From Escherichia coli (GTDB lineage Bacteria > Pseudomonadota > Gammaproteobacteria > Enterobacterales > Enterobacteriaceae): a DNA stretch of 64,000 bases. Positions 1,962-62,583 of the stretch are shown one piece after another (within the stretch, counting starts at the first letter, position 1; each line of letters opens with the position of its first letter). Both the position numbers and the translations under genes were made by a program. The notes under the pieces are model-generated. The model was given only the letters and a program-made list of their open reading frames with translations. It was not told the origin of the DNA and searched no databases. Location: NCBI RefSeq assembly GCF_044324875.1, contig NZ_CP172185.1, one strand, 5' to 3'.

Positions 1962-3286
<1,325 letters not shown>

Positions 3287-3315
3287 ATGACAACCGCCCT
3301 GACGGGCGGTTGAGT

Positions 3316-4092
3316 TTATTCTTTAGTTTTTTCGCTTTCTGCTTCAGCGTCGTTTTCTTCTTCCCGGTTTCGGCCCTTACCAACGTAAAAGCGTGAGAAG
3401 AAGACACCGATTTCAAACAGACAGTACATCGGGATCGCCAACAGCGTTTGCGAGAAGACATCCGGCGGCGTCAGCAGCATCCCGACAACAAATGCGCCAA
3501 CCAGCACATACGGACGTTTTTTGCGTAAGTCTTCTGGCGAGGTAATTCCCATCCAGCACAGCAGCACAATTGCCACCGGCACTTCAAAGGAGACACCAAA
3601 CGCCATAAACAGCGCCATAACGAAGCTTAAATAGCTGGCGATGTCGGTGGATACCTGTACCCCTTCCGGCGCGGTATTGGCAAGGAAGCCAAATGCCAGC
3701 GGAAAGACCACAAAGTAGGCGAACGCCATGCCGATATAAAACAACAGAGAGCTGGAAACCAGCAGCGGCACCACCAGGCGACGTTCATGCTTATACAGCG
3801 CTGGGGCGATAAACGCCCACACCTGATAGAGAATCACCGGCGCTGACAGAATCAGCGACACCATAAAGGTCAGCTTGATCGGCGTAAAGAACGGCGAGGC
3901 CACGTCGGTGGCGATCATCGTTGAACCTTGCGGCAACTGCTTGATCAATGGAGCGGATACCAGGTGATAGATGTCATTGGCGAAATAGACCAGACACAGG
4001 AATATCACGATCACCGCGATAATGCAGTTCAGCAGACGCTTACGCAGCTCAATCAGATGCGTGATAAGCGGTTGAGTATCTTCTACAGACAT
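3316..4092 (-). CDS. tatC: Twin-arginine translocase subunit TatC
   Basis: 258-aa polytopic membrane ORF; matches TatC in length and sequence. Confidence 0.9.
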
Positions 4093-4094
4093 GT

Positions 4095-4610
4095 TTACGG
4101 TTTATCACTCGACGAAGGGGAAGGTGCAGCGGTTTTCGGTTCAGCGTCCGCAGCAGGTTTTACCACCGGCTCTGGCGTGGTTTCTGGCTTCTGTTCCGGC
4201 GAACTGGCCTGCGTTTGTGCAGCAGCAGGCGTTACGCCTTCATGCGCAGCTTCATTGTCTTTCACCACCGGGTTGTGGATGGTGTGCGCTTCATCACTCG
4301 CCTTTTCAGGATCGTTTGCAACGTAGGAACGCTTCATCGACTCCGCGGCCTGGCGTAGTTCATCCATCGACGCTTTCAGTTCGGGCGTCAGGTTAGTGAG
4401 GCTCGCCTTTTCAACCTTTTTCAGACTGTCCTGAAACTCCTGGAGTTTTAACTCCTGGGTCAGTTCGTTCTGCACCGTTGTCGCCAGTGAACGCAACGCG
4501 CGAATCCAGCCCGCGACCGTTTTTACCGCCACAGGCAGTCGTTGCGGCCCCAGAACGACGAGGCCGATGATGAATACCAATAGCAGTTCGCTAAAACCGA
4601 TATCAAACAC
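4095..4610 (-). CDS. tatB: Twin-arginine translocase subunit TatB
   Basis: 171-aa [29 protein letters not shown]...; TatA/B family N-terminal helix with a long acidic/Pro-rich tail. Confidence 0.9.
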
Positions 4611-4613
4611 GGA

Positions 4614-4883
4614 TTACACCTGCTCTTTATCGTGGCGCTTCGCGTCTTCTGTTTTAGCCTGTTCCTGATTCGTATCCGCCTGCTTATCGGCGATAGTTTT
4701 CGCAGTAAAATCAGCATCCTGACTGGTTTTATCCTGCTTTGGTTCATCATCGCTCATTGCTTTTTTAAAGCCTTTGATCGACGCACCAAGATCGGAACCG
4801 ATGGAGCCGAGCTTTTTGGTGCCAAAAAGCAGTACAACGATGACGGCAATAATCAATAACTGCCAAATACTGATACCACCCAT
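4614..4883 (-). CDS. tatA: Twin-arginine translocase subunit TatA
   Basis: ORF track gives 103 aa; the known TatA begins at the internal [27 protein letters not shown] (89 aa), so the start was moved to ~4883. Confidence 0.85.
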
Positions 4884-8067: not shown

Positions 8068-9495
8068 CTAGCGCGACTGCTGATTATATTCATCATCGCG
8101 TTGATAAGCTTCATCATTCGGCTGCCCAGGAACCGACCGAAGTCGATACTCTTCATCCTGGCTCACCGCCTGTTCAGCCAAATCCGGGTTAATCTCGCGT
8201 TTAATTTCTACCCCTAAACCGCGAAACGCTTCTGCCTGCGCCAGCACATTTCCGCGACCTGAAGAGAGTTTTTTCATCGCCTGGCGATAGTTATCCTGCG
8301 CTTTGTCCAGACTTTGACCAATCGCGGACATATCATCAATAAACAGACGCATCTTGTCGTACAGCTTGCTGGCGCGATCGGCGATTTGCTGGGCGTTACG
8401 GCTTTGATGCTCATAACGCCAAAGGTTGGCGATAGTACGCAACGCCACCAGCAGCGTGGTGGGGCTAACCAGCATTATGTTGTTCTTTAATGCTTCGGTG
8501 ATCAGCTCCGGCTGGCGATCAAGCGCCAGTAAAAAAGCGGGTTCCACAGGGATAAACATCAGCACGTAATCCAGCGTTCGTAGCCCCGGCAGCTGTTGAT
8601 AGTCTTTGCGCCCAAGCAAGCGGATGTGATTACGTACCGAAGCAATATGCTCCTGCAATGCGCTTTCGCGTGTGTAGTCGTCTTCCGCGTTGAAGTAGCG
8701 TTCATAGGCGACCAGCGTCATTTTGGCATCGATCACCACATCTTTCCCCTGCGGTAGCCGCACGATGACATCCGGCTGCATCCGCGAGCGAGCGTCATTT
8801 TCGATGCTGACCTGGGTTTCGTATTCATACCCTTCACGCAGTCCGGAAGCCTCCAGCACCCGCGTCAGTACCACTTCGCCCCAGTTCCCCTGGGTTTTGT
8901 TATCGCCTTTCAGCGCGCGGGTCAGGTTGATCGCTTCCTGGGCCATTTGCGCGTTGAGCTGCTGGAGATTGCGAATTTCGTGGGTCAGGGTATGGCGTTC
9001 TTGTGCTTCTTTACCAAAGCTGTCCTGAACCTGACGGCGGAAACCGTCCAGTTGTTCACGTAGCGGCGACAACAGGCTGTTCAGACTCTGACGGTTTTGC
9101 TCATCAACCCGGCGATTGCTGTGCTCAAAAATACGGTTGGCGAGGTTTTCAAACTGCTCACTGAGGCGCTGCTCGCTGTTAATCATCTGGCGAATTTTAT
9201 CGTCAGCATGTTGCTGTGCGGCTTCCATCCGCGTGGTTACTTCACGCAGATCGGCCTCCAGAGAGGTGTTAATACTTTGCAGGCTGCGCACTTCGTTATT
9301 GAGTAACTCGCACTCAGCGCGCCAGTGCTCGCTTTGGGTAATTTGTTGTTTTGCCGCGCTTAACTCCGCGACCATCTCTTCACGTTCAGCTAATTGCTCG
9401 GCTTTTTGCTGCGCATGTTGATAACTGGCAAACAGCCAGCCAATTGCCACACCCACCAACGCAATAACTGCGTAAACCATGATTGAGAAATCCAC
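8068..9495 (-). CDS. rmuC: DNA recombination protein RmuC
   Basis: 475-aa ORF with N-terminal TM segment and long coiled-coil region; matches RmuC (YigN) position and length. Confidence 0.85.
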   Translation of the reverse strand: MDFSIMVYAVIALVGVAIGWLFASYQHAQQKAEQLAEREEMVAELSAAKQQITQSEHWRAECELLNNEVRSLQSINTSLEADLREVTTRMEAAQQHADDKIRQMINSEQRLSEQFENLANRIFEHSNRRVDEQNRQSLNSLLSPLREQLDGFRRQVQDSFGKEAQERHTLTHEIRNLQQLNAQMAQEAINLTRALKGDNKTQGNWGEVVLTRVLEASGLREGYEYETQVSIENDARSRMQPDVIVRLPQGKDVVIDAKMTLVAYERYFNAEDDYTRESALQEHIASVRNHIRLLGRKDYQQLPGLRTLDYVLMFIPVEPAFLLALDRQPELITEALKNNIMLVSPTTLLVALRTIANLWRYEHQSRNAQQIADRASKLYDKMRLFIDDMSAIGQSLDKAQDNYRQAMKKLSSGRGNVLAQAEAFRGLGVEIKREINPDLAEQAVSQDEEYRLRSVPGQPNDEAYQRDDEYNQQSR

Positions 9496-9599
9496 AACGC
9501 CTCCTGACGCAACAACTTACCCGCACAAAATAGAATTGTGCTGTACAAACGTCCAGTTGGAAAGGCATTTCCTGCGAGGCGCTACGCAAAAATACAAAA

Positions 9600-9616
9600 G
9601 GCCGAACGCGTCGGCC
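9600..9616 (-). terminator. Rho-independent terminator downstream of udp
   Basis: Perfect inverted repeat ggccga-acgcg-tcggcc; on the minus-strand transcript it is followed by a U-rich tract (cuuuuguauuuuug). Lies just 3' of the udp stop. Confidence 0.6.
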
Positions 9617-9635
9617 TTCAGACAGGAGAAGAGGA

Positions 9636-10397
9636 TTACAGCAGACGACGCGCCGCTTCCACCACGATTTTCACCGCTTGGCTTTCAGTTTGTTTCATCG
9701 TCTCAGCATTCGGGATCTCTTGCTGGGTGCGGTTAACGATAACGCCCGCCACCATACCCGCACGCAGGCCCTGACTTGCACACATGGTCAGCAGGGTTGC
9801 AGATTCCATTTCATAGTTCATTACGCCCATCGCCTGCCACTCTTCCATAGAACCTTTAAAGTGACGAACTACGCGACCAGAGTAAGTATCGTAACGTTCC
9901 TGGCCTGGGTAGAAGGTATCAGAAGAAGCCGTCACGCCAACGTGAGTCGTCGCGCCAATGGATTTCGCCGCTTCAACCAGCGCAGTCGTACATTCGAAAT
10001 CAGCGACAGCCGGGAATTCCAGCGGTGCGAAGTGCAAGCTCGCGCCATCCAGACGAACAGACGCCGTGGTAACCAGAACATCGCCAACATTAATATGCGG
10101 CTGAATAGCGCCCGTTGTACCGATACGCAGGAAGGTGCGAATGCCCAGCTGTGCCAGCTCTTCAACAGCAATAGAGGTAGACGGGCCGCCGATACCGGTA
10201 GAGCAGACGATAACAGGTTTACCATCCAGCTCTGCACGCCAGGTGGCGAATTCGCGGTGAGATGCCAGCTTAACCGGCTTATCCATCAGCGCGGCGATCT
10301 TTTCCACACGATCCGGGTCGCCAGGGACGATGGCAAGCGTAGCCCCTTGTAAATCGTTTTTAGTGAGGCCGAGATGAAAAACATCAGACTTGGACAT
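9636..10397 (-). CDS. udp: Uridine phosphorylase
   Basis: ORF track gives 255 aa; known Udp starts [19 protein letters not shown] (253 aa); PNP/UDP phosphorylase family. Confidence 0.9.
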
Positions 10398-10658: not shown

Positions 10659-11471
10659 ATGGCAACAACACAACAATCTGGATTTGCACCTGCTGCATCG
10701 CCTCTCGCTTCGACCATCGTTCAGACCCCGGACGACGCGATTGCGGCGGGCTTCACCTCTATCCCCTCACAAGGGGATAACATGCCTGCTTACCATGCCA
10801 GACCAAAGCAGAGCGATGGCCCACTGCCAGTGGTCATTGTAGTGCAGGAAATTTTTGGCGTGCATGAACATATCCGCGACATTTGTCGCCGTCTGGCGCT
10901 GGAGGGGTATCTGGCTATCGCACCTGAACTTTACTTCCGCGAAGGCGATCCGAATGATTTTGCCGATATCCCCACGTTACTTAGCGGTCTGGTAGCAAAA
11001 GTGCCTGACTCGCAGGTGCTGGCCGATCTCGATCATGTCGCCAGTTGGGCTTCCCGCAACGGCGGCGATGTACATCGTTTAATGATCACCGGATTCTGCT
11101 GGGGGGGACGTATCACCTGGCTGTATGCTGCGCATAACCCGCAACTGAAAGCGGCGGTGGCATGGTACGGCAAACTGACAGGCGATAAGTCGCTGAATTC
11201 ACCGAAACAACCTGTTGATATCGCAACCGATCTTAACGCGCCGGTTCTCGGCTTATATGGTGGTCAGGATAACAGCATTCCGCAGGAGAGCGTTGAAACC
11301 ATGCGCCAGGCGCTGCGGGCTGCTAATGCGAAAGCAGAGATTATCGTCTACCCGGATGCCGGGCATGCATTCAACGCCGATTATCGCCCGAGCTATCATG
11401 CCGAATCTGCGAAAGATGGCTGGCAGCGTATGCTGGAGTGGTTTAAGCAGTATGGTGGGAAGCGGAATTAG
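10659..11471 (+). CDS. ysgA: Dienelactone hydrolase family protein YsgA
   Basis: ORF track begins at 10593; the likely start is the ATG at 10659 (MATTQQSGF...) preceded by ggaga. Alpha/beta hydrolase; conserved neighbour of udp. Confidence 0.8.
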   Translation: MATTQQSGFAPAASPLASTIVQTPDDAIAAGFTSIPSQGDNMPAYHARPKQSDGPLPVVIVVQEIFGVHEHIRDICRRLALEGYLAIAPELYFREGDPNDFADIPTLLSGLVAKVPDSQVLADLDHVASWASRNGGDVHRLMITGFCWGGRITWLYAAHNPQLKAAVAWYGKLTGDKSLNSPKQPVDIATDLNAPVLGLYGGQDNSIPQESVETMRQALRAANAKAEIIVYPDAGHAFNADYRPSYHAESAKDGWQRMLEWFKQYGGKRN

Positions 11472-11862
11472 TTTCCTCTTAGTCTATATTTGAGATGGTG
11501 AGTGAACGAGTGCGTTTTGCTGCCATCTCTGTCCCCCAAAAAATAATCAGTATGAATTGATTGGAGAGCACGACTCCGCTATTTGACCTTAAGAAAGTCG
11601 GCAAGTAATAGTCATAAGTGAGTCTCTTCACTGGCAGACACCTTAGAGATTTACCATCAACTCCCATTCTCAAACAAACATTAATTATTATCAACACATT
11701 CACATTAATTATAAATTATCTCAGACCTTCCTGATAAAAAGATATTAAAGTGAAACATTTTGTTTTTCACATTTTAGTTCATCCCTTTTAGGCGTAAATA
11801 AAGGTAAAAAATAACAATACTATTTTTCTTTCACAAAAGAATTAACAAAAGGTTTTTCAAGG

Positions 11863-12996
11863 ATGAGTGATATTATTTACCTGAACATAACCGGAGAACA
11901 ACAAGGATGTATTTCCTCTCGTTGTGGAACGAGCGCATCAATAGGTAATCGCTGGCAGATTGGCCATGAAGATGAAATCTTCGCGTTCTCGCTCTCTAAT
12001 AGTATTACGAATACAGGCAAAGGGTCACAATTGCATGGCCTTAGTTTCTGTAAATTGATTGACAAAAGCTCCCCGTTACTTATTAACGCTATTAACAATA
12101 ACGAGCAGTTGTTCATGGAGTTTGACTTCTATCGGATCAATAGATTTGGTCGATGGGAGAAATATTACAACATTCAACTTCGCGGCGCGCTCTTATCAGC
12201 AATCAATCACCTGTTTACTGAGAACAATCTGGATACAGAAACCATCACTGTCAGTTATGAATATATACTCTCCAGGCATCTGATTGCTAATACTGAATTT
12301 AGTTATTTGGCATTTCCCGATAACTACAACCGTCTGTTTATACCACGGCCAAAAACTAAAGATGATAATGGCCTCAAAACACTCAATAGTAAAGCGGTTG
12401 GCAGACTGCTTGCTGCTGGCGGCATATACAATGGGAATATCGAAGGATTCAGGGAAACAGCAAACAAGTTGGGAGGAGATGCACCTGCTGGTTACGATCA
12501 AGTTATGGATAACAAAGGGTTACTCATCGCTGGTGCTTCAATAGTTGCTGGAGTTGTTCTGGGAAGAATGAGATTCCCTGATTTGGAATCACTTGAGCAT
12601 TTCGGAGCCAGAGGAGCAGTATCAGGAAGACCATTTAATCCCGACCTTGCCGGTGGTCCAATTGAAAACCTGACGATAGATGGCGTAACAATCAACAGGG
12701 AAGGTATCGCTATTGTTGAAAAGCATATCTCCAGATTTGATCATGATCCAGCTAATGATGTAATGATTTCAAGGCTAAAGAAAATAGCAAATAAAGAATT
12801 GCTTCCTGAAAAATACGATCTGAACTACTATACTCATGAATGTCGCGAGTATCAGCGTTATTGTAATTTAGGATGGGAAACAGGTGAACCGAAAGGTTTA
12901 GATGGATATGAATTATGGAATAATGTACATACTGCAACTCTAGAAGACTTTAAAATTAAAGATACTGACTTATTTCATCCGGATGCAAAAAAATGA
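11863..12996 (+). CDS. Hcp (T6SS tube protein) fused to a C-terminal extension of unknown function; candidate Hcp-ET type VI effector
   Basis: Residues ~1-160 (MSDIIYLNITGEQQGCISSRCGTSASIGNRWQIGHEDEIFAFSL...LHGLSFCKLIDKSSPLLINAINNNEQLFMEFDFYRIN...EKYYNIQLRGALLSAI) align by eye with enterobacterial Hcp (Y-I-x-I-x-G-x-Q-G, S-I-G-N-x-x-Q-x-GHEDEI, DKSSPLL, FxFYR...E-Y-Y). Residues ~165-377 form an extra domain containing a hydrophobic stretch (LLIAGASIVAGVVLG). Visibly AT-rich; absent from the K-12 ysgA-metE interval as I recall it. Confidence 0.7.
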   Translation: MSDIIYLNITGEQQGCISSRCGTSASIGNRWQIGHEDEIFAFSLSNSITNTGKGSQLHGLSFCKLIDKSSPLLINAINNNEQLFMEFDFYRINRFGRWEKYYNIQLRGALLSAINHLFTENNLDTETITVSYEYILSRHLIANTEFSYLAFPDNYNRLFIPRPKTKDDNGLKTLNSKAVGRLLAAGGIYNGNIEGFRETANKLGGDAPAGYDQVMDNKGLLIAGASIVAGVVLGRMRFPDLESLEHFGARGAVSGRPFNPDLAGGPIENLTIDGVTINREGIAIVEKHISRFDHDPANDVMISRLKKIANKELLPEKYDLNYYTHECREYQRYCNLGWETGEPKGLDGYELWNNVHTATLEDFKIKDTDLFHPDAKK

Positions 12997-13250
12997 CGAT
13001 TACGATAGTTGAATTTAACGTGCTGAAAGTTATGGCTGAGAAAGATATTGACTGGAGCTGGATGGTGCTGGATCGTACTTTAGCTATACGAAATATTCCA
13101 GGATTTGGCAACGTAGCGAATATCGTAACAAAGCTGGTTAATCATGGGTTGGTTGATATCGTAAATGGTGAGGGCAACTCTAGACCACGCTACAGAGTTT
13201 CTCAATATGGATTGAATCTTATCAAAGAACAACAAGACAACCTCTTCTGA
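12993..13250 (+). CDS. Small protein (85 aa), candidate cognate immunity protein or small winged-helix-like protein
   Basis: ATG overlaps the TGA stop of the Hcp fusion (ATGA), implying translational coupling. No signal peptide. Paralogous to the next ORF. Confidence 0.5.
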   Translation: MTITIVEFNVLKVMAEKDIDWSWMVLDRTLAIRNIPGFGNVANIVTKLVNHGLVDIVNGEGNSRPRYRVSQYGLNLIKEQQDNLF

Positions 13251-13309
13251 TCCAGCCATTACAGGAGCATGATTTACATTGTGATCTTTCAATAAGATAC
13301 TCATCAATT

Positions 13310-13570
13310 TTGGTACAGAATATCGTGATCACTAAAAATGAACTTAACGTGCTGAACGTTATGACTGAGAAAGATATAAACTGGAACTGGATGAATCTCG
13401 ATCGCACACTATCCATAAGGCAAATTCCAGGATTCGGGAATGTTGTTAACATTGTTAACAAATTAGCTAACGAAGGTTTGGTTATTATTGAGGATAGCGG
13501 GAATAAGTCTATGCCTCACTACCACGTTAGTGAAAAGGGATACAATCTCGTGCAACGTGAGAATAAATAA
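13310..13570 (+). CDS. Small protein (86 aa), tandem paralog of the preceding ORF (second immunity candidate)
   Basis: Roughly half the residues match the upstream 85-aa ORF (NVLKVM-EKDI-W-WM-LDRTL-IR-IPGFGNV-NIV-KL-N-GLV). Start codon uncertain: the track start appears to be non-ATG. Confidence 0.45.
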   Translation: MVQNIVITKNELNVLNVMTEKDINWNWMNLDRTLSIRQIPGFGNVVNIVNKLANEGLVIIEDSGNKSMPHYHVSEKGYNLVQRENK

Positions 13571-13678
13571 CGTAGCGTTGATTACTGAACGGAATCACTC
13601 AAAACTGTGTTTTGCGAAAAAAACGATTCGGTTATTTCTGCTCCTGAAGATCAGCTTCAATCTGGCACTCATGCAAAA

Positions 13679-13698
13679 TGGCTTCCAGTGCTGGAAGC
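13679..13698 (-). terminator. Hairpin downstream of metE (putative terminator)
   Basis: Perfect 9-bp inverted repeat ggcttccag-tg-ctggaagcc immediately 3' of the metE stop; the flanking U-tract on the minus transcript is only moderate. Confidence 0.4.
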
Positions 13699-13738
13699 CA
13701 TTATCGTACTGCAATTTACAGTGACTCGTTAATATTCG

Positions 13739-16000
13739 TCATCCCCGACGCAAATTCTGCGCCGCCTGCACCATGTTCGCCAGTGCCGCGCGGGTTTCTG
13801 GCCAGCCGCGCGTTTTCAGGCCACAGTCCGGGTTGACCCACAGACGCTCTGCCGGAATGCGTTTTGCCGCTTTCTTCAGCAAGGCTTCAATCCATTCCAC
13901 GCTCGGTACGTTTGGCGAGTGAATGTCATAGACGCCAGGACCGATTTCATTTGGATAATCAAACTCTTCAAACGACTCCAGCAACTCCATGTCGGAACGC
14001 GAGGTTTCGATGGTGATGACGTCTGCGTCCAGCGCCGCAATCGAATCCATGATGTCGTTGAACTCGCAGTAACACATGTGAGTGTGGATTTGTGTGTCAT
14101 CTTTCGCCACGGCGGCGTTGATACGGAAAGCCTCCACGCCCCACTGGAGATAGGCATCCCAGTCGCCGCGACGCAGCGGTAAACCTTCGCGCAGTGCCGG
14201 TTCATCAATCTGGATGATGCCAATTCCAGCGGCTTCCAGGTCCGCCACTTCATCACGCAGCGCCAGCGCAATTTGTTTGGCGATGGTTTCACGGCTGACA
14301 TCTTCACGCGGGAACGACCAGCAGAGAATGGTCACCGGGCCGGTCAGCATCCCTTTCACCGGTTTGTCAGTCAGCGATTGCGCATACTTCGCCCACTCAA
14401 TGGTAATCGGTGCCGGGCGGCTAACGTCACCAATGACAATCGGCGGCTTCACGCAGCGGGAACCGTAGCTCTGTACCCAACCGTTTTGCGTAAAGACAAA
14501 ACCGTCGAGATGCTCGCCAAAGTATTCCACCATGTCATTACGCTCGGCCTCGCCATGCACCAGCACATCCAGACCTAAACGTTCCTGCTCAACAATGGCC
14601 TGCTTGATATGTTCCGCAATGCCCGTGCGGTAGTTGTTGGCGTCGAGATTACCCTTTTTGAAATCCAGACGCAGGGTACGAATTTCCGTGGTTTGCGGGA
14701 AGGAACCAATCGTGGTGGTCGGCCACGCGGGCAGTTTAAAACGCGCACGCTGGGCTTCAGCACGCACTTCATAGACATTCGCACGCTGACTGTCCTGAGC
14801 GGTGATCGCCGCCAGACGCTTTTCTACTGCCGGATTATGTACGCGGGTTGAGTGACGACGCGCCTGAATCGGAGCGCTCCACTCTGCCAGAGCAGCCGTG
14901 TCACCACTGTTCAGCGCATCGCGCAGCAGTGCCAGTTCATGACATTTTTGCAGGGCGAAGGCAAACCAGCTTTTCACTTCTGCATCAAGACGCGTTTCCA
15001 CGCTCAGGTCGATGGGGCTGTGCAGCAGTGAGCAGGAAGATGCCACCCACAAATCGCGTTTGCCGACAATGTCCTTAATTTGCGCATACTTCTCGGTAAG
15101 ATCGGCGCGCCAGACGTTACGACCATTGATCAGACCCGCAGACAGCAGCCAGTCAGAAGGCAGACGCTTGTGCAGTTCAGCAACGTCATCTTTACCATGT
15201 ACAAGATCGACATGCAGACCCTGAACAGGCAGCGCAGTAATCGTGTCGAGATTTGGCGTTACGCCTTCAAAATAGGTGGTCAGCAGCAGTTTCACCTGTC
15301 CCTGGAGCGCGTCGTAAGCGGGTTTGTATGCGTCCAGCCACGCCTGCGGTAGTTCCAGTACCAGCGCTGGTTCGTCGATCTGTACCCACTCAATACCGCG
15401 TTTTGCCAGTTCTGCCAGCACTTGCTGATAAATCGGAAGAATGTCGTTCAGCAGGCTCAGGCGATCAAACTGTTCACCTTTCACTTTACCCAGCCACAGG
15501 TAGGTAACCGGCCCCAGCAGCACAGGTTTCACCTTGTGGCCCAGCGCCAGCGCCTCGTCCACTTCCTCCAGCAGCTGCGTCCAGGTCAGTTTGAACTGTT
15601 GGCCTTTAACGAACTCCGGCACCATGTAGTGATAGTTGGTGTTAAACCATTTGGTCATTTCCGCTGCCGCCGCAGGTTCACCAGTCGGCGCACGTCCACG
15701 ACCAATACGGAACAGGGTGTCGATATCTACCGAACCATCTTTGTTCTGATGACGTGGCGGAACATTACCCAGCAGCAGACTGGTGGTCAGTACATGATCG
15801 TACCAGGCAAAATCGCCCACCGGCAGCAGGTCGATACCCGCCTGCTTTTGTTGATCCCAGTGACGGGCACGTAATTCACGCCCAACCGCCAGCAGTTCTT
15901 CACGCGTGGAGTTCCCCGCCCAATAACTTTCTTGCGCTTTTTTCAGCTCGCGACGCAGGCCAACGCGAGGGAAACCGAGGGTGTGATTCAATATTGTCAT
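13739..16000 (-). CDS. metE: Cobalamin-independent methionine synthase
   Basis: 753-aa ORF beginning [29 protein letters not shown]; recognised as MetE. Confidence 0.95.
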
Positions 16001-25764: not shown

Positions 25765-25858
25765 AAAATAAATATATTCTGAAAAAATATGCCGACTCTT
25801 GCATGAGAGTGGGCATATTGCCATGCTGACAGGAGACTCACACAAGGATGTAAAATTT

Positions 25859-26239
25859 ATGTTGCGTATATTTATCCCAACATCTAACGGTAAGATTTCC
25901 AGACGCCGTTATATATTTTCATTTATTTTAATAAATTTCATTTTTGCCTTTCTTATTATCTTTTTTAACGATGGGGACGCAGGTTTTCTTGTTATTGTCT
26001 CTACCATCGCACTCCATTATCTCGTCATCAACATAAATTGCCAACGACTCCGTGATAGTGGTTTCATATATATAAAAACTTATGTTTTTGGTACATTAGC
26101 AGTATATATCATCTCTATCATCACAATGATAGCCGAACATTTTGATTGTTCAGGCAATGGTTCGATGATTTTTTTGATTTGTTATTTTTCCACTTTCAGT
26201 ATGCTAATGCTTGCACCTACTGATTCATCAAAACAATAG
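25859..26239 (+). CDS. yigG: Small inner membrane protein YigG
   Basis: ORF track begins at 25799; internal start [34 protein letters not shown] gives ~126 aa. AT-rich; conserved position after rarD. Confidence 0.6.
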
Positions 26240-26252
26240 TTATGGAGTATTT

Positions 26253-26633
26253 ATGAGTAAGGAGTATATGAACGATGGTTCATTAAGTGAAAAATGGAAA
26301 TACCGATTTAACTTTTATGATCAACATGGCTTTCCTGGATTCTGGGGGGCAACACCAGAATATAAAGCAGCATTTAAAACATTAAAAGTAAGACAACGAT
26401 TAACTATTCAAATGAATTTCATTGCTTTCTTCTGTTCCTGGATCTATTTATTTGTTCTGGGATTATGGAAAAAAGCAATTATAGTTCTATTACTTGGCAT
26501 TCTATCTCTATTTGTTGGTGCACTAATTGGCGTTAACATTCTGGGAATTGCCGTAGCAGCCTATGTTGCTGTTAACACGAACAAATGGTTTTATGAGAAA
26601 GAGGTAAAAGGGTTAAATACCTGGAGCCTTTGA
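26253..26633 (+). CDS. yigF: Small inner membrane protein YigF
   Basis: ORF track begins at 26211; internal start MSKEYMNDGSLSEKWKYRF gives ~126 aa with TM segments. Confidence 0.6.
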   Translation: MSKEYMNDGSLSEKWKYRFNFYDQHGFPGFWGATPEYKAAFKTLKVRQRLTIQMNFIAFFCSWIYLFVLGLWKKAIIVLLLGILSLFVGALIGVNILGIAVAAYVAVNTNKWFYEKEVKGLNTWSL

Positions 26634-26640
26634 ATAACAG

Positions 26641-26677
26641 GTGGCTTAGCCAGGCTAAGCCACCGCTCTCGTTTTTT
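26641..26677 (+). terminator. Rho-independent terminator after yigF (possibly bidirectional with corA)
   Basis: Stem gtggcttag / ctaagccac with loop ccagg, followed by cgctctcgtttttt. Confidence 0.5.
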
Positions 26678-35492: not shown

Positions 35493-35668
35493 CTTTATGA
35501 AGTCTGAAAAGTGAGGAAATGCTGCGAGTATAACGCTTACACGTGGCGATTTATGTTTTGCTGGTAGTTTCGTGATCAACACCTCGTGCCAGGATGGCTT
35601 TATGCACTATCGCAATGTGGTTTGTTTGTTGTCTTGTTCGTTGTTTTTATCGTCGGCATGGGGCTTTT
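35493..35668 (+). repeat. Leader-module repeat copy 1 (5' UTR plus truncated signal-peptide ORF remnant)
   Basis: ctttatgaagtctgaaaagtgaggaaatgctgcgag...tagtttcgtgatcaacacctcgtgccaggatggctttatgcactatcgcaatgtggtttgtttgttgtcttgttcgttgtttttatcgtcggcatgggg is near-identical to the 5' ends of the genes at ~36578 and ~39461, but runs into a stop after ~22 codons (…SSAWGF*). Confidence 0.6.
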
Positions 35669-35761
35669 AAAAGAGTGGCGCACCATGCAATTTCGTTGTC
35701 TGACCTTAGTCGCCAGTGACATACAGCTTTGCCAACCTGGTGATAAGAGGGAAAAAATCTG

Positions 35762-36316
35762 ATGGGGCTATTTACCCAACTGGAAAAATTTGACCAAAAG
35801 CTTACGCGCGGTTATGCCCGCTGGGGGCGCTGGGTATGGCGGACGTTAATTGTCGTTCCAATACTGGTCGTATTGTGGAATATAGGGCAGGCAGTATGGG
35901 GAGGACCAAGAGGTGGAGTGATTCTGGAAATCCACAGTGAAATTGACCGCCCGATACTGGGATTCAGTGTTAACGGCGTGGCGGGCGCGAATGCTTTTGC
36001 GAATGGTGGCGGTTCAATCACCTGTTGCGGTGATGTCAGTGGGGATACGGCAGAGGTTATCTGGACATTAAGTACTACTCGTACACAGTATAATGCTGGA
36101 ATGCGTCTGGAGAAACGCAATATGACGTTACCTCTCCCAAAAAGAGAATGGGGAGAAAATTATCTGCACGTGCATTTTATGCCTGGCGATAAAGTGTTGC
36201 TGGGGTGGAGTAAAGATTCTTTTTCTCCGTATGAAGATCTTCACAACGGGGGGTACAAGACCCGCGTTCGGCAGGATGTGAAAGATAAACTTTATGGCAC
36301 AGGAAAAATGAATTGA
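35762..36316 (+). CDS. Hypothetical membrane-anchored protein (184 aa)
   Basis: ORF with a predicted N-terminal TM/signal-anchor (WVWRTLIVVPILVVLWNIGQAVWG) and a Gly-rich GGGSITCCGD motif; preceded by a plausible RBS (agaggg). Function unknown. Confidence 0.45.
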   Translation: MGLFTQLEKFDQKLTRGYARWGRWVWRTLIVVPILVVLWNIGQAVWGGPRGGVILEIHSEIDRPILGFSVNGVAGANAFANGGGSITCCGDVSGDTAEVIWTLSTTRTQYNAGMRLEKRNMTLPLPKREWGENYLHVHFMPGDKVLLGWSKDSFSPYEDLHNGGYKTRVRQDVKDKLYGTGKMN

Positions 36317-36577
36317 TAGATTTCTATAAAAATCACGTTCGGCAGAAAGCGTAATAATGTGGCGAATGTTAGATACCCGTGGTGGAACCTGGGTACAACT
36401 CGTGAAAGACAATAAAGAAGGCAACGGGGGGCGGAATCCCACCTTGCCTCCCTTCCAGGGGTCAATCCGGAATATTTTTATGCTATTAGCCGTACTATGG
36501 GGCAGTTCCGGGATTGTATTTATATCGTGAATGAAAACATCACCTTTATTCCAGCAACTATCAGAAAATAGCGATGA

Positions 36578-36750
36578 CCTTTATGGATTCTGAAAAGTGA
36601 CGATTTGCTGCGAGAGTTACGCTTACTTGTGAGGATTTATGTTCTGCTGGTAGTTTCGTGATCGGCACCTCACGCCAGGATGGCTTTATGCACTTTCGCA
36701 ATGTGGTTTGTTTGTTGTCTTGTTCGTTGTTCTTATCGCCTGCCTGGGGA
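36578..36750 (+). repeat. Leader-module repeat copy 2 (intact; forms the 5' UTR and signal peptide of the 490-aa gene)
   Basis: cctttatggattctgaaaagtgacgatttgctgcgagagttacgcttacttgtgaggatttatgttctgctggtagtttcgtgatcggcacctcacgccaggatggctttatgcactttcgc...; direct repeat of copy 1. Confidence 0.6.
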
Positions 36751-38130
36751 TGTAAGCTTTCATCTGTGGATCCCAATGAGTATCAGCAACAGGGAAAAGG
36801 CGTGGTGTACCTGCGCCCTAATCAAAACACCAATCTTTCGCTACCGAACGTGAATTACAAGCGCCTGCGTCGGTTGGCGAATTTGTTAATTGACCCAGCG
36901 ACACTGGAAGATTGGGAGGAAATACCGCCGTTAACCGATCTGTCTACTGATTATGATGTGAGGGGCGCAAATGCCTGGTATCCTCATTACTCCTGGCATA
37001 GCGATGGTCGCTATATTATTTACGCTGGCAAGATAGTGCAAAATCCTGCGGGTGCACCGCCGGTTGACGTCACGTCATTCAAGGCTTGGGGCGATTTTGC
37101 CGCTGATAAAAATAGCCTCTATTTCAGAGGCGAACGCACGGATGACAATGGTGGTGACAAGCCTTTAGATAGCAAAACACTGCATCAGATGAATTTACCG
37201 CCGCCATGGGAACCTGACGTCCTCGGGCTGATATTGCGTGATGCTAACTTCCTGTATATCAACGGGCATCGTATTGCTGAGACCAATAGTTTCCGCGTGC
37301 TGGCGCAAAAGTCCTGGGATAAGCACGGAAAATTTTCCATGAAGTTTAGCTGCATTCGCAAACCATTCGGCCCCTGGGATACGCTGGCTCGTACACAGAC
37401 GAAGATTATGCTCAACGGCGAACAACTGGATGCCGACCCGGATACCTTCACCGTTGTGCGCTGGATACCTGAAGCATTAATAAGCTGGCGAGATAAAAAC
37501 GGCTTTCACCGAAAGGTACTGGATCAATATGCCCTGGACAGCAATGAGGAATATAGCTGCGGTAGTTTCAATGTAAAGGAACACCGCGTCACCTGGCGTA
37601 GTAGCTTCCCGGGTAAGGGAGCAGAATGCCAACAAGAAGAGATTCCCGGCCTCGATCCTGAACAGTTTCACCCAATTAGCGATGCTGTCGCGCAATATCA
37701 GGACAAGCTGTACGTCATCGAAACAACGCCATTTGACGAGCTCAAGCTGAATATTGTTACGCTTGATGACCCGAAACTGATTATTAATAAGCGCTTCAAC
37801 GCCGGGAAGCGTCACGGTTACTTGCTCACAAGAAAGGGAGACGAGTTTGGGGATTCTGGTTTACAGGTGTTTGAATCCGCCGGGCCGCTCATTTTATTTG
37901 ATAACCACATCCCCAGCGAACGGGAAGCGCATCAGGTTAGCAGCAACCCTTATATCCAAAAATGGTTAGCCCGCGACGACAAATATGTTTATCGCTTCGA
38001 TGGCATGCAGCTCTGGCGCTATCACACCGCAGATCCCCGAGCCGTGCGCGTCGTGAACGATCAACTCGATGACAAAATTAACGGTGATGGCGAGTTTATA
38101 CCCACTCCGCGCGATGAGGCTAAAAAATGA
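36658..38130 (+). CDS. Secreted repeat protein, paralog A (DKNYY-like motifs; possible lipoprotein)
   Basis: 490-aa ORF; N-terminus M(I/H)...FRNVVCLLSCSLFLSPAWGC looks like a signal peptide ending in Cys. Recurrent motifs KNSLYFRGERTDDNGG, NFLYINGHR, DKLYVIETTPF and DDKYVYRFDG resemble the DKNYY family. Start may be the ATG at ~36688. Confidence 0.6.
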   Translation: MIGTSRQDGFMHFRNVVCLLSCSLFLSPAWGCKLSSVDPNEYQQQGKGVVYLRPNQNTNLSLPNVNYKRLRRLANLLIDPATLEDWEEIPPLTDLSTDYDVRGANAWYPHYSWHSDGRYIIYAGKIVQNPAGAPPVDVTSFKAWGDFAADKNSLYFRGERTDDNGGDKPLDSKTLHQMNLPPPWEPDVLGLILRDANFLYINGHRIAETNSFRVLAQKSWDKHGKFSMKFSCIRKPFGPWDTLARTQTKIMLNGEQLDADPDTFTVVRWIPEALISWRDKNGFHRKVLDQYALDSNEEYSCGSFNVKEHRVTWRSSFPGKGAECQQEEIPGLDPEQFHPISDAVAQYQDKLYVIETTPFDELKLNIVTLDDPKLIINKRFNAGKRHGYLLTRKGDEFGDSGLQVFESAGPLILFDNHIPSEREAHQVSSNPYIQKWLARDDKYVYRFDGMQLWRYHTADPRAVRVVNDQLDDKINGDGEFIPTPRDEAKK

Positions 38131-39437
38131 AAGTGATGAAAAAAAGTATCTCACTGGCGCTCATCCTGTTGGGGTACACGGTGGCAATTCCGGCCGTCCA
38201 GGCTGAAGGGTACGAATACTACTCTAACCAGGGAGCCCTGGTTTACGGTTCAAACTTCGGGGGACAAAAGAAAATCATTGCCAAGTTTACGGGAATTAAC
38301 AGACGCGATTTGTACCCTGTGGAAAATATCTCTGGCGAGCAGGAACGATATATTATCGAAGATGAAGTCACCACAATTAAAGAGGAGTACCACTGGATAA
38401 CGGACGGTCACGTCATTCTCTGGCGAGGGAAAATCGTGAGTAATCCTCCCGGTACGCCAATGGTCGATGTTGCCAGCTTTAAGGCTCTGGGCCGCTTCGC
38501 CGTCGATAAATACAGTCTCTATTTTGACGGTCAGCGCACCGAAAGCAATAGCGGTGCTTCGAAGGTGGACCTGGCAACCCTAAAAGCTATCGAAGATAAC
38601 AGCAGCACGCTGGTTGACCGACATAACCTTTATTTATTGGGACGCAGGCAGGCCAGTAGCGACGATTTCAGCGTACTACAAAGTAAATTGTGGGGGGATA
38701 TCGAGCGGTTCCGCCCACGCAATGAAGGGGCTACCTCCCGCGACCTGCTTATTCGTCATCGCCAGGATGTGTTTCTCAATGGTCAGCGCATTGCAGACGT
38801 TGATGCTGACACCTTTCACATCATTCGATGGATCCCCAATTCATTATTGGTCTACCGCGACAAACATGGTGAGCACCGTTACGCCTATGGCAACCCGGCC
38901 GGAAAAATGGCAACGACCGATGATGCGAATTCGTTTGAAATCGGTGAAAAAACCGTCCGCTGGCGCAGGCAACTCGCGCGGGATGACGCCTGGCCCACGC
39001 AACTCTCGTGGGATGTCATATGGGGGGCCTGGCAGGATATTCCCAATGTTGATCCGGAACAGTTCCATCTGATCACTGACCGCATCGCGCAGTATCAGGA
39101 TCGTCTGTATATCATCAAACTGTCGCCAGTTGGCGAAGACCAGCTTAACGTTATCACCCTGGATACCCCTGATTTAGTGGTTGATCACGTCTTCAATGGT
39201 GGGAAAAAGCACATTTATATTATCAAGGACAGAGCGTGGGTGCAGGATGTTCATGTGATTGCTACCCACGGTCCACTCACCATGGCTGAGAGTTTCGCCT
39301 GGGACGATCGCTATGTATATGCCTGGCGGGGCCAGCGACCTTCCAGAACTGAATCGCCATGTCCGGAGCAAACCGTTGAGCAGGATGATGGCATAGTCAT
39401 TAAGACCGAAGCATCAGAGTGCCACCGCACGCCGTAA
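38127..39437 (+). CDS. Secreted repeat protein, paralog B (DKNYY-like motifs; Sec signal peptide)
   Basis: 436-aa ORF whose ATG overlaps the stop of paralog A (ATGA). Classical signal peptide MKVMKKSISLALILLGYTVAIPAVQA; motifs KYSLYFDGQRTESNSG, HNLYLLGRR, DRLYIIKLSPVGEDQLNVITLD and DDRYVYAWRGQ; C-terminus ...KTEASECHRTP. Confidence 0.6.
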   Translation: MKVMKKSISLALILLGYTVAIPAVQAEGYEYYSNQGALVYGSNFGGQKKIIAKFTGINRRDLYPVENISGEQERYIIEDEVTTIKEEYHWITDGHVILWRGKIVSNPPGTPMVDVASFKALGRFAVDKYSLYFDGQRTESNSGASKVDLATLKAIEDNSSTLVDRHNLYLLGRRQASSDDFSVLQSKLWGDIERFRPRNEGATSRDLLIRHRQDVFLNGQRIADVDADTFHIIRWIPNSLLVYRDKHGEHRYAYGNPAGKMATTDDANSFEIGEKTVRWRRQLARDDAWPTQLSWDVIWGAWQDIPNVDPEQFHLITDRIAQYQDRLYIIKLSPVGEDQLNVITLDTPDLVVDHVFNGGKKHIYIIKDRAWVQDVHVIATHGPLTMAESFAWDDRYVYAWRGQRPSRTESPCPEQTVEQDDGIVIKTEASECHRTP

Positions 39438-39460
39438 AATGGGTCATTATTTTTAACGGG

Positions 39461-39555
39461 TAGTTTCATGATCAACACCTCGCGCCAGGATGGCTTTATG
39501 CACTATCGCAATGTGGTTTGTTTGTTGTCTTGTTCATTGTTTTTATCGTCGGCAT
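39461..39555 (+). repeat. Leader-module repeat copy 3 (partial; 5' end of the 685-aa gene)
   Basis: tagtttcatgatcaacacctcgcgccaggatggctttatgcactatcgcaatgtggtttgtttgttgtcttgttcattgtttttatcgtcggcatgggg matches copies 1 and 2. Confidence 0.6.
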
Positions 39556-41525
39556 GGGGATGTCGGCTTTCCGCGCCTGAACATAATATTTACCAGAAAC
39601 AGGGAAAAGGCGTGGTATACCTGCGCCCTTATAAAGAAACAAATCTTTCTCTTCCTGACGTGAATTACAAAAGTTTGCGCCGTTTACCCAATTTATTAAT
39701 AGACCCGACAACACTAGACGAATGGGATAAAGAACCGCCTCTGACTGATTTGACAACCGACTACCTCTATGAGGGCGCACAGGCCTGGTATCCTCATTAT
39801 TCCTGGCATAGCGATGGTCGCAATATCCTCTACGCGGGTGAAGTTGTGCAAAACCCTCCCGGCACACCTCCCGTCGATGTCGCCTCGTTCAAGGCATGGG
39901 GTGATTTTGCCGCAGATAAACACAGTCTCTATTTTGAAGGCAAGCGCACCGATGACAATGGCGGAGAAAATAGTCTAGATATCAAAACGCTGCATCAGGT
40001 GAAATTCCGTTCCCCCTGGAAACCTGACTTACTGGGGCTGATATTACGTGACGCTAATTTCTTGTATATCAATGGGCATCGCCTCGCTGACCCCGAGAGT
40101 TTCCGTGTGCTGGCGCAAAAGTCCTGGGATCGGCGAGGAAAGTTTTCCGCCGAGTTTAACCCCTGCGTTGCCGTACCATTTGGCCCCTGGGATACGTTAG
40201 CCCGTACACGGACCAAAATCATAATCAATGGCGAACAGCTTACAGCCGACCCAGAGACATTTACTGTCGTGCGCTGGATGCCCAGTTCGTTATTAACCTG
40301 GCGTGATAAAAACGGGCTGCAGCGTAAAGTGCTGAATCAGGGAAATCTGGACAAAGATAGGGCAAATAGCTGTGCAACGTTCAATTTACAGGAACACTTT
40401 GTTTCATGGCGCAAAGGGCCAGAATGTCAGCAAGAAGTCCTACCCGGCCTCGATCCAGAACAATTTCACCCTCTTAGTAATACCGTTGCTCAGTATCAGG
40501 ACAAGCTGTACACCATCAAAAAAACGGAATTTGGCGAAAATAGGCTAGATATCGTCACACTGGATAATCCTGGTTTGGTGATAGATAAACGCTTTAACGC
40601 GGGAAGAACTCACGGCTATTTATTGACCAAATTACCAGCTGATGGTGAAGAAGAAGATGGCCTCCAGGTATTCGAGTCTTCCGGGCCGCTTATCCTGATG
40701 GATTATCGTGTTCCTGACGAGCATGAGGCTCACCTTAGCGATAGCCCCCATTACAAGAAATGGTATGCACACGACGATCGTTATGTTTACGCATTCGATG
40801 GCTCACAGCTTTGGCGCTACCCAACTCCCAATACCAAAGCCGTGCGGGTGAAATGGAAAACCAAAGATTCAGGATATGGCTATTGGGCAAACTACCGTAG
40901 TGGTGAGCTTGACGGCAGACTTCTTGAGGATGGTGCGTTTATTCCAACGGGAATCCCCTATAACTCATCCGTTAACATTGCTCAATATTCTGATGGCGAA
41001 GGCTCTTTTCTCGTCGGCGAAACCGATGTTAGCTGGCGTAAGCTTCGCTCTACAGACCAGCAATGGAGTCAATGGGAGAAACTCCCCGATATTGACCCGA
41101 AAGCATTTCATCCCATCACCGATCGTGTCGCGCAGTACAAAAATCATCTGTACATTGCGAAATTGTCTCCTTTTGGTGAAGACACCCTGGAGATAATAAC
41201 GCTCGACTCTTCTGCACCTTTCCTGAAACAACGAATTAACGCCGGGAAAGGCCATGGTTACTTTATGCGCTCTTCCCGTTTACGCGATGATATTCAAATT
41301 TTTGCTATTGATGGACCATTGAAAACCACCGAACGTTTCGCTTATGACAATCGCTATGTTTATACCTGGATCGGTAGCCAACTTTATCGAACCGCATCGC
41401 CCTGTCCGGCCAGGACACGTAATCTGGATCAGAACATGTTTTCATCCAATGATGACATCATCATCCTGAAGACGGAGGAAGAGTGCCACAAAACACCAGA
41501 CATTGAGCAAACTTTGAAGCCCTGA
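39468..41525 (+). CDS. Secreted repeat protein, paralog C (mosaic: A-like body plus B-like C-terminal module)
   Basis: 685-aa ORF. The first ~440 aa are collinear with paralog A (e.g. YPHYSWHSDGR, FKAWGDFAADK, PWDTLARTRTKI); the last ~230 aa resemble the C-terminal half of paralog B (DRVAQYKNHLYIAKLSPFGEDTLEIITLD, DNRYVYTWIGSQ, ...KTEEECHKTP). Confidence 0.6.
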   Translation: MINTSRQDGFMHYRNVVCLLSCSLFLSSAWGCRLSAPEHNIYQKQGKGVVYLRPYKETNLSLPDVNYKSLRRLPNLLIDPTTLDEWDKEPPLTDLTTDYLYEGAQAWYPHYSWHSDGRNILYAGEVVQNPPGTPPVDVASFKAWGDFAADKHSLYFEGKRTDDNGGENSLDIKTLHQVKFRSPWKPDLLGLILRDANFLYINGHRLADPESFRVLAQKSWDRRGKFSAEFNPCVAVPFGPWDTLARTRTKIIINGEQLTADPETFTVVRWMPSSLLTWRDKNGLQRKVLNQGNLDKDRANSCATFNLQEHFVSWRKGPECQQEVLPGLDPEQFHPLSNTVAQYQDKLYTIKKTEFGENRLDIVTLDNPGLVIDKRFNAGRTHGYLLTKLPADGEEEDGLQVFESSGPLILMDYRVPDEHEAHLSDSPHYKKWYAHDDRYVYAFDGSQLWRYPTPNTKAVRVKWKTKDSGYGYWANYRSGELDGRLLEDGAFIPTGIPYNSSVNIAQYSDGEGSFLVGETDVSWRKLRSTDQQWSQWEKLPDIDPKAFHPITDRVAQYKNHLYIAKLSPFGEDTLEIITLDSSAPFLKQRINAGKGHGYFMRSSRLRDDIQIFAIDGPLKTTERFAYDNRYVYTWIGSQLYRTASPCPARTRNLDQNMFSSNDDIIILKTEEECHKTPDIEQTLKP

Positions 41526-47767: not shown

Positions 47768-48964
47768 ATGCTAAAAGTGTTATTGCTCTTTGTTTTGCTG
47801 ATTGCGGGGATAGTGGTTGGCCCGATGATTGCCGGACACCAGGGTTACGTGCTGATCCAGACCGACAACTACAATATTGAAACCAGCGTCACTGGCCTGG
47901 CGATTATTTTGATTCTGGCAATGGTAGTGCTGTTTGCCATTGAGTGGCTACTGCGGCGGATCTTCCGCACAGGCACACACACCCGTGGGTGGTTTGTCGG
48001 ACGTAAGCGTCGCCGTGCCCGTAAGCAGACCGAACAGGCGCTGCTGAAACTGGCGGAAGGCGATTATCAGCAAGTTGAAAAGCTGATGGCGAAAAATGCC
48101 GATCACGCTGAACAACCGGTGGTGAACTATCTGCTGGCTGCCGAAGCCGCGCAACAACGCGGTGATGAAGCACGCGCCAACCAACATCTGGAACGCGCAG
48201 CGGAGCTGGCCGGCAACGACACAATTCCGGTAGAAATCACCCGTGTACGTCTGCAACTGGCCCGTAATGAAAACCATGCAGCACGTCACGGCGTTGATAA
48301 GCTGCTGGAAGTTACGCCACGCCATCCGGAAGTATTACGTCTGGCGGAACAGGCGTATATCCGCACTGGTGCATGGAGTTCGCTGCTGGATATCATCCCA
48401 TCAATGGCAAAAGCCCACGTTGGCGATGAAGAGCATCGTGCAATGCTGGAACAACAGGCATGGATTGGCCTGATGGATCAGGCGCGTGCCGATAACGGTA
48501 GCGAAGGTTTGCGTAACTGGTGGAAAAACCAAAGCCGGAAAACGCGTCATCAGGTGGCGTTACAGGTGGCAATGGCGGAACATCTTATTGAATGTGACGA
48601 TCATGATACTGCCCAGCAAATTATCATCGACGGCCTGAAACGCCAGTATGACGATCGCCTGCTGCTGCCGATCCCGCGTCTGAAAACCAATAACCCGGAA
48701 CAGCTGGAAAAAGTGCTGCGCCAACAGATCAAAAACGTGGGCGATCGCCCGTTGTTGTGGAGCACACTGGGTCAGTCGCTGATGAAGCACGGCGAATGGC
48801 AGGAAGCATCGCTCGCCTTCCGCGCGGCGCTGAAACAACGTCCGGACGCCTACGATTACGCATGGCTTGCCGACGCGCTGGACAGACTGCACAAGCCGGA
48901 AGAAGCCGCAGCGATGCGTCGCGATGGCTTGATGTTAACGTTGCAGAACAACCCGCCACAGTAA
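47768..48964 (+). CDS. hemY: HemY (TPR-containing membrane protein, protoheme IX biogenesis)
   Basis: 398-aa ORF with N-terminal TM helices; conserved position. Confidence 0.9.
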   Translation: MLKVLLLFVLLIAGIVVGPMIAGHQGYVLIQTDNYNIETSVTGLAIILILAMVVLFAIEWLLRRIFRTGTHTRGWFVGRKRRRARKQTEQALLKLAEGDYQQVEKLMAKNADHAEQPVVNYLLAAEAAQQRGDEARANQHLERAAELAGNDTIPVEITRVRLQLARNENHAARHGVDKLLEVTPRHPEVLRLAEQAYIRTGAWSSLLDIIPSMAKAHVGDEEHRAMLEQQAWIGLMDQARADNGSEGLRNWWKNQSRKTRHQVALQVAMAEHLIECDDHDTAQQIIIDGLKRQYDDRLLLPIPRLKTNNPEQLEKVLRQQIKNVGDRPLLWSTLGQSLMKHGEWQEASLAFRAALKQRPDAYDYAWLADALDRLHKPEEAAAMRRDGLMLTLQNNPPQ

Positions 48965-48967
48965 TCT

Positions 48968-48998
48968 ATATCGCCTCGTTCAGAGGCGATATTTTTTT
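48968..48998 (+). terminator. Rho-independent terminator of the hemCDXY operon
   Basis: 10-bp stem atatcgcctc / gaggcgatat with loop gttca, followed by tttttt. Confidence 0.65.
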
Positions 48999-49004
48999 AC
49001 CAGG

Positions 49005-62565: not shown

Positions 62566-62583
62566 GTTTGCCTCCGCTGAAAA

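Follow-up and report, generated by a model that had tools for sequence, protein, structure and literature searches.

Fusions of Hcp (TssD), the tube protein of type VI secretion systems (T6SS), to C-terminal toxins are an established class of effectors. As far as the work of Ma et al. (2017, Virulence 8:1189) is summarized in PMC6730261 and PMC6099711, Hcp-ET1 to Hcp-ET5 are delivered in a T6SS-dependent manner and fall into the HNH-DNase, DUF2235/Tle1, Pyocin S3, Colicin-DNase as well as papain-like peptidase classes. Hcp-ET1 is reported to be delivered by T6SS2 and not by T6SS1. In addition, toxicity has been shown for T6EC4 of Citrobacter koseri (the T6EC4/T6IC4 pair), together with its neutralization by the downstream gene (Geller et al. 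2024, Mol Syst Biol). Here, we describe a locus of this general kind in a 64,000-nucleotide stretch of Escherichia coli DNA (contig NZ_CP172185.1; hereafter the window), in which an island of three same-strand genes lies between ysgA and metE (positions 11472-13738). One of these genes encodes a 377-amino-acid (aa) Hcp fusion protein and the other two encode small paralogs.

Based on the sequence and structure comparisons given below, the island is most probably an orphan T6SS effector/immunity module of the "specialized Hcp" (Hcp-ET) type, a reading that takes in predicted delivery and predicted toxicity. It shares with the Hcp-ET effectors an N-terminal Hcp domain followed by a C-terminal toxin, downstream immunity gene(s), which are sometimes duplicated, and the orphan position that is often found among them. 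However, its toxin belongs to none of the five Pfam-defined classes and its immunity candidate is an ~85-aa protein of winged-helix type. T6EC4 is likewise an Hcp fusion from an orphan operon, and its C-terminal domain has no Pfam annotation, but that domain is reported to be Tox-REase-5/TseT-like. Our fold searches with the island protein returned no such proteins, which makes identity with T6EC4, as compared by its published description, unlikely. We found no description of either the toxin/immunity family or the junction module that precedes the toxin in Pfam, NCBIfam, PDB or such literature as could be searched, and both appear to be new, being set apart from the Hcp-ET classes by way of the reviews and from T6EC4 by its description.

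The Hcp Domain and the YhhZ Paralog

The fusion gene (11863-12996, plus strand; named "tssD" in RefSeq) is intact. Residues 1-147 of its product (11863-12303) are a bona fide Hcp/TssD tube domain. These residues matched TIGR03344 (TssD) with an E value of 2.8e-36 and a score of 124.9 bits (the curated cut-off is 58.9), and residues 6-135 matched PF05638 (T6SS_HCP, E 4.8e-14). The N-terminal part also matched solved Hcp structures in PDB (6a2v, E 8.5e-15). The first-pass annotation of this DNA, which was made from the letters and translations alone, had assigned the N-terminal ~160 aa to Hcp, and these matches bear the assignment out. It had also placed a toxin extension of ~210 aa behind the Hcp domain; such an extension is present, but it is ~230 aa long and consists of two modules, a junction and a toxin core, rather than one domain. 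With its folded part at residues ~250-377, the extension exceeds both published length criteria for an extended Hcp, >60 aa (PMC8262886) and ≥120 aa (PMC11148199).

Over residues 1-230, the protein shared 73% identity with YhhZ from E. coli HS, a gene also present in K-12 and 55989, and the similarity ended completely at that point, beyond which YhhZ gave a weak HNH/colicin-pyocin DNase match. E. coli K-12 and most strains carry, as yhhZ-yrhA, a close paralog of the Hcp-plus-junction part at another locus. YhhZ has been classified as an Hcp1-family polymorphic toxin with an HNH domain of His-Me finger group 32 (PMC5714182), and the published description of Hcp-ET1, read together with the 55989 genome, indicates that YhhZ is probably Hcp-ET1 and YrhA its partner ETI1. 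The yhhZ-yrhA pair and the island have in common an overlapping toxin-immunity layout and an orphan position in a housekeeping interval; they differ in the toxin tip (with a weak HNH match in YhhZ), in the immunity protein (YrhA has 164 aa) and in the chromosomal site. Identity of the island protein itself with Hcp-ET1 was rejected, because the ysgA-metE site of 55989 is empty and the gene that this strain does have is of the yhhZ type.

In Citrobacter europaeus and Salmonella enterica, an ortholog with the toxin tip of the island (74-77% identity) was found at the yhhZ locus, between yhhX/yhhY and ggt, and this locus also has the immunity type found in the island. The presence of the same tip there indicates that Enterobacteriaceae have a polymorphic Hcp-ET locus at the position of yhhZ. 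The ysgA-metE module of E. coli appears to be a second, horizontally acquired copy of the yhhZ scaffold with another tip. At the Citrobacter europaeus locus (3112-4660 of the locus examined), genes of 84, 84, 92 (Pfam Imm35) and 91 aa were observed upstream of the ortholog, and these four small genes look like an orphan immunity gene array.

The C-Terminal Toxin Core

A sequence search over 1.84 billion cluster representatives (50% identity clusters, E ≤ 0.001) returned 544 relatives of the ~135-aa toxin core (residues 245-377; 12595-12993, plus strand), with alignments that fell almost exclusively within the final ~130 query residues. In these relatives, which include proteins of 1000-5200 aa and reach 5214 aa, the core usually lay at the C-terminal end. 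A Pfam scan of 35 diverse carriers identified Pyocin_S in five, PAAR in four, RHS in one or two, and the core of an extracellular contractile injection system (eCIS), LysM and WXG100 in one each; the toxin core itself gave no Pfam match in the query or in any of the 35 carriers. Relatives in the AlphaFold database carried the names S-type pyocin, pyosin/cloacin translocation domain protein, PAAR protein and RHS protein. Because the core is C-terminal on pyocin, PAAR, RHS and other scaffolds, we interpret it as a polymorphic-toxin tip.

Across a 28-sequence alignment, residues G251, G264, G281, H288, R304, D319, H325, E326, E329, R332, W352 and H356 were invariant. Structure prediction, which had been suggested at first pass as a check on the fusion, gave a confident AlphaFold2 model of the core (predicted local distance difference test score, pLDDT, 94-99) that was mostly alpha-helical, with a small hairpin followed by four helices. 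Profile searches of the C-terminal part, where a known toxin domain might have been expected, returned no family match, and a literature search with the conserved toxin motifs as text strings gave no papers. No HNH or Col-Pyo DNase match was found on the island protein even at E ≤ 10, whereas YhhZ gives both weakly, and the fold search with the core model found no match to the beta-beta-alpha-metal fold. [quoted passage not shown]

The core was also compared with the nuclease bacteriocins, which are defined by five cytotoxic domains: HNH, S3-type DNase, E3 rRNase, and the E5 and D tRNases (PMC5536347). The same core is C-terminal on Pyocin_S proteins (the five carriers mentioned above and many AlphaFold database entries), and a small gene for a cytosolic immunity protein, putative in the island, follows in both cases. 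The E. coli fusion, unlike the bacteriocins, has no Pyocin_S domain and has the junction module in its place, and its core matched none of the five cytotoxic domains in Pfam (query and 35 carriers) or by sequence in PDB. Pyocin_S/IMT domains are reported to accompany cytoplasm-acting nuclease domains (PMC9040868). By analogy, the core may be a nuclease, which we would put at not quite an even call; this is a guess by association, since the sequence and fold searches gave nothing outside the family.

The Small Downstream Genes

The first of the two small genes, candidate 1 (12993-13250, plus strand, 85 aa), has an ATG that overlaps the toxin stop codon (ATGA). The second, candidate 2, follows on the same strand at 13325-13570 if it starts with GTG (81 aa) or at 13310-13570 if it starts with TTG (86 aa). 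The two proteins were 59% identical (E 3e-32), and the best match of candidate 2 among the retrieved homologs was 75% identical. The early proposal that these paralogs are immunity candidates agrees with their position, with the ATGA overlap and with the linkage of such genes to the toxin core.

In all the contexts examined (E. coli and seven others), the toxin core was directly followed by a gene of ~80-90 aa, which in many cases overlapped the toxin stop codon. This gene encoded 88 aa after the Cronobacter DUF8093 fusion, 86 aa in Lonsdalea and 89 aa in both Citrobacter and Salmonella, and a 79-aa gene was located 3 nt downstream of a 5157-aa RHS protein. A 1450-aa metagenomic He_PIG-repeat protein was overlapped by an uncalled open reading frame (ORF) of 82 aa that was 30% identical to candidate 1 (E 9e-13), and the small gene after the core of a LysM protein had 19% identity to candidate 1. 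Four of the partners, those of Lonsdalea, Citrobacter, Cronobacter and the He_PIG protein, are homologous to the E. coli small protein, and the RHS, Salmonella and L011 partners are like it in size and position only. No signal peptide was identified on the small proteins, which we read as putative cytoplasmic immunity proteins. Candidate 2 is probably a second, duplicated or orphan putative immunity gene of a sort that is common in such loci.

Candidate 1 has ~170 relatives of 80-105 aa, all from Enterobacterales, and many of these are labeled "MarR family transcriptional regulator". Its AlphaFold model (pLDDT 89) has its helices and strands in the order H-b-H-H-b-b-H, which is a winged-helix topology. 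True MarR proteins are about 140-150 aa long and have a winged helix with flanking dimerization helices. With 85 aa, no dimerization helices and no MarR match in Pfam or NCBIfam (the only match was EarA-like, E 0.21), candidate 1 does not have the full set of features of a MarR regulator.

The Junction Module

The junction (residues 172-237; 12376-12573, plus strand) is a stretch of ~65 aa with the pattern KTLNSKAVGRLLAAGGIYNGNIEGF..TA..LGGDA..GY..., which in the alignment reads KTxNSKxxGRLLAAGGxYNGN..F..T...LGGDA..GY. The alignment comprised the query, YhhZ, other Hcp fusions and proteins with unrelated N-terminal domains, and the conserved columns were invariant over three to four N-terminal domains and over five or more toxin tips that are unrelated to one another. 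The carriers other than Hcp were DUF8093 in Cronobacter, for which a literature search (DUF8093/PF26362) gave no papers, and a domain without a name that occurs in Lonsdalea and Pantoea.

The junction ends in a hydrophobic Gly/Ala-rich helix, GLLIAGASIVAGVVLG, which hydropathy analysis identified as the most hydrophobic stretch of the protein. Within it, a motif scan recognized SIVAGVVLG at residues 226-234 as a glycine-zipper-like (G/A/S)xxxGxxxG motif. Tde1 of Agrobacterium similarly has a Gly-rich hydrophobic (G/A/S)xxxGxxxG segment adjoining a cytoplasm-acting toxin domain, an Ntox15 DNase, and its glycine zipper is required for translocation (PMC10240207). The two proteins have no sequence relationship, and the Tde1 zipper is N-terminal, whereas the segment in the island protein lies between carrier and toxin.

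T6SS Context and Proposed Mode of Action

No T6SS structural genes were found within the window, as the first-pass annotation had stated, based on the collinearity of the window, save for a few small segments, with annotated strain 7/2 and on a reading of the ORFs in the one large extra segment. Strain 7/2 lacks this segment, 35663-41505 (~5.8 kb), and has in its place only the remnant of a "DKNYY family protein" pseudogene. It carries three tandem paralogs at 36658-38130, 38127-39437 and 39468-41525 (490, 436 and 685 aa) that have signal-peptide or lipoprotein-like N-termini and no NCBIfam match, and that are not T6SS parts. A 184-aa ORF (35762-36316) precedes these paralogs and has a very weak likeness, at 19 bits where the cut-off is 110, to the Tli1a family of T6SS lipase immunity proteins.

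The island of strain 7/2 is 100% identical to that in the window, and this strain has a complete T6SS cluster at aspV with tssA, B, C, E, F, G, J, K and M, a ClpV-like ATPase, two Hcp, VgrG and Rhs. The idea that the fusion is delivered by a T6SS encoded elsewhere is therefore plausible. By analogy with Hcp-ET1 to Hcp-ET4, the fusion would be built into the tube of such a T6SS, probably in mixed rings with plain Hcp, and the T6SS would fire it into neighboring enterobacteria. The hydrophobic glycine-zipper-like junction may, as in Tde1, help the toxin domain to cross or engage the inner membrane, and the toxin would then act as an enzyme in the prey cytoplasm. Action in this compartment is suggested by the immunity candidates having no signal peptide and by some carriers having an IMT/Pyocin_S domain. 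In the producer and its kin, the 85-aa winged-helix protein would bind and block the toxin, and the second paralog might protect against a variant toxin or add dosage. As for its origin, the module may have been formed by the swapping of a toxin/immunity tip on a yhhZ-like Hcp-junction scaffold and may have entered the ysgA-metE interval through recombination after horizontal transfer.

Several points weigh against an effector that is delivered and toxic in this manner. The toxin core has no match in Pfam, NCBIfam or PDB sequences and no fold relative outside its own family. AlphaFold confidence is low for the junction, and the membrane role of the junction is drawn from analogy. The complete T6SS was shown in a genome with an identical island, strain 7/2, and not in the window's own genome, and the fused Hcp domain is only 38% and 30% identical to the two Hcps of the aspV cluster. 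In addition, K-12 keeps yhhZ without any T6SS, which indicates that such genes can persist without delivery.

Insertion Between ysgA and metE

The interval between the end of ysgA (dienelactone hydrolase family; 10659-11471, plus strand) and the end of metE (13739-16000, minus strand) is 2267 bp. Its guanine-plus-cytosine (GC) content ranges from 0.30 to 0.45, versus 0.53-0.58 in the flanks. Both the ~2.3 kb of AT-rich DNA and the arrangement of one main gene at 11863-12996 followed by two small tandem paralogs, as recorded at first pass, were thus found, and the gene coordinates were cross-checked against the RefSeq annotation of the identical island in strain 7/2. An AT-rich non-coding leader of about 390 bp (11472-11862, ~30-37% GC) precedes the operon and contains two sigma-70-like hexamer pairs on the plus strand, at 11520-11547 and 11583-11612. 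A minus-strand ORF in this leader (11479-11703, 74 aa, GTG start) had no support and was disregarded, and no Rfam family was found in the island at E ≤ 1.

The close spacing of ysgA and metE that was stated for K-12 at first pass was seen at the empty site of E. coli 55989, where they are 38 bp apart with only a terminator hairpin between them. Of 5426 complete E. coli genomes, 4569 do not have the island. Relative to this empty site, 54 bp, terminator hairpin included, have been replaced by 2280 bp. In the window, a perfect 12-bp inverted repeat, AATGGCTTCCAG tg CTGGAAGCCATT (13677-13702), stands where the empty site has its hairpin, between the second immunity candidate and the metE stop. 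The last three codons of ysgA are altered (GGKRN* in the window versus GGKKSL* at the 55989 empty site), and the end of the metE protein is the same, with its stop codon being TGA in the window versus TAA. Based on these altered ysgA codons and the altered metE stop, the recombination junctions lie inside the ends of the two genes. Neither direct repeats at its flanks nor a tRNA or integrase could be identified for the island, and site-specific integration was rejected on these grounds.

Other parts of the window also differ from strain 7/2. Positions 25848-26676, between rarD and corA, do not align to that strain and represent a small variable islet, in which the window has ORFs at 25799-26239 and 26211-26633 and strain 7/2 has YPO3983-family and DUF943 genes. 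No megablast alignment to strain 7/2 was obtained for 61717-63650, in the enterobacterial common antigen cluster near wecC/rffC, or for 48963-49600, near aslA/hemY, which suggests allelic replacement of these two stretches.

Distribution, Allele History and Alternative Explanations

Island DNA was present in the remaining 857 of the 5426 complete E. coli genomes (~16%), always on the chromosome and in three main sequence types. The B2 strains differ from the window in their toxin allele. In APEC O1-type B2 strains, the toxin gene has a stop at W98 and both small genes are intact, as inspected in APEC O1, where RefSeq annotates the toxin gene (9198-10331 of the locus examined) as a pseudogene with an internal stop. 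A 63-base allele with the W98 stop was found in 257 genomes, including Nissle 1917 and ATCC 11775, and the intact 63-base allele of the window around codon 98 was found in 297. The retention of intact small genes beside a stopped toxin gene is the pattern expected of immunity genes. In B2 strains such as APEC O1, the toxin island forms the metE-proximal end of the tkt1 island, which measures 16 kb and corresponds to GR29 (PMC12928451). The older annotations of UTI89 and APEC O1 list 229-aa and 163-aa fragments (Q1R4A0 / A0A0H2Z4D2) under the names "uncharacterized protein" and "colicin", and these fragments result from the W98 stop.

These alleles bear on the alternative that survives best, an unlikely one in our assessment, in which the island is a relic or silent cargo. 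The toxin gene would be unexpressed, being AT-rich and likely H-NS-silenced, or its product could not be loaded, and the island would be kept because the immunity genes protect against attackers. The ~257 B2-type genomes with a stopped toxin gene and retained small genes are consistent with such a history, as are the IS1 and IS3 insertions seen in the island of other strains, the low GC content (30-42%) and the persistence of the paralog yhhZ in K-12. However, the 377-codon frame of the window is intact and its 63-base allele recurs in 297 genomes, the 98%-identity protein cluster has 1511 full-length 377-aa members, and strain 7/2 combines an identical island with a complete T6SS. The first-pass suggestion that the locus might be a relic therefore fits the B2 lineage with the W98 stop and does not fit the intact copy in the window.

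A second alternative, which we consider very improbable, is that of an intracellular toxin-antitoxin or addiction module, in which the toxin is not delivered and a winged-helix antitoxin and autorepressor stabilizes the island or aborts phage infection. The DNA-binding type of winged-helix topology, the "MarR family transcriptional regulator" name given by NCBI in many genomes, and the two-gene, overlapping, orphan layout are all as such a module would have them. Toxin-antitoxin pairs usually have the antitoxin gene before the toxin gene, which is not the order of the genes here. The N-terminal half of the protein is a full Hcp domain above the curated cut-off, scaffolds that are secreted or injected (pyocins, PAAR, Rhs, WXG100 and eCIS) carry this toxin core at their end, and none of the three proteins matched PADLOC defense-system models at E ≤ 1, all of which argues against this alternative.

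Finally, the possibility that the C-terminal domain is an HNH/colicin-type DNase and the protein the published Hcp-ET1 or Hcp-ET4, which is suggested by the names "HNH endonuclease" and "colicin" on database fragments of the island protein and by the weak HNH match of its close paralog YhhZ, was rejected, given that no HNH match was obtained at E ≤ 10, the similarity to YhhZ ends at residue 230 and there is no beta-beta-alpha-metal fold.

Significance

The Hcp-fused architecture is that of an established effector class, and RefSeq already names the gene tssD, so the orphan effector/immunity module proposed here does not change the understanding of T6SS weapons. A more far-reaching version, which we hold to be doubtful, would have the core as a new enzyme fold or activity beyond nuclease, lipase and NADase, the winged-helix immunity protein as perhaps also a repressor of its operon, and the junction as a general, carrier-independent device for translocation across the prey inner membrane. 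A junction that is common to unrelated carriers and toxins could account for the exit of Hcp-borne toxins from the tube or for their passage through the inner membrane. The winged-helix immunity candidate would represent a possible new mode of neutralization, and the "MarR" label that it carries is an annotation error worth correcting.

The toxin domain itself is spread over T6SS, bacteriocin, Rhs, eCIS and type VII scaffolds and is carried by ~16% of complete E. coli genomes, among them those of Nissle 1917 and of avian pathogenic and uropathogenic E. coli (APEC/UPEC) lineages. As a widespread toxin with no family annotation, solved structure or fold relative, it constitutes a well-defined and experimentally tractable unknown.

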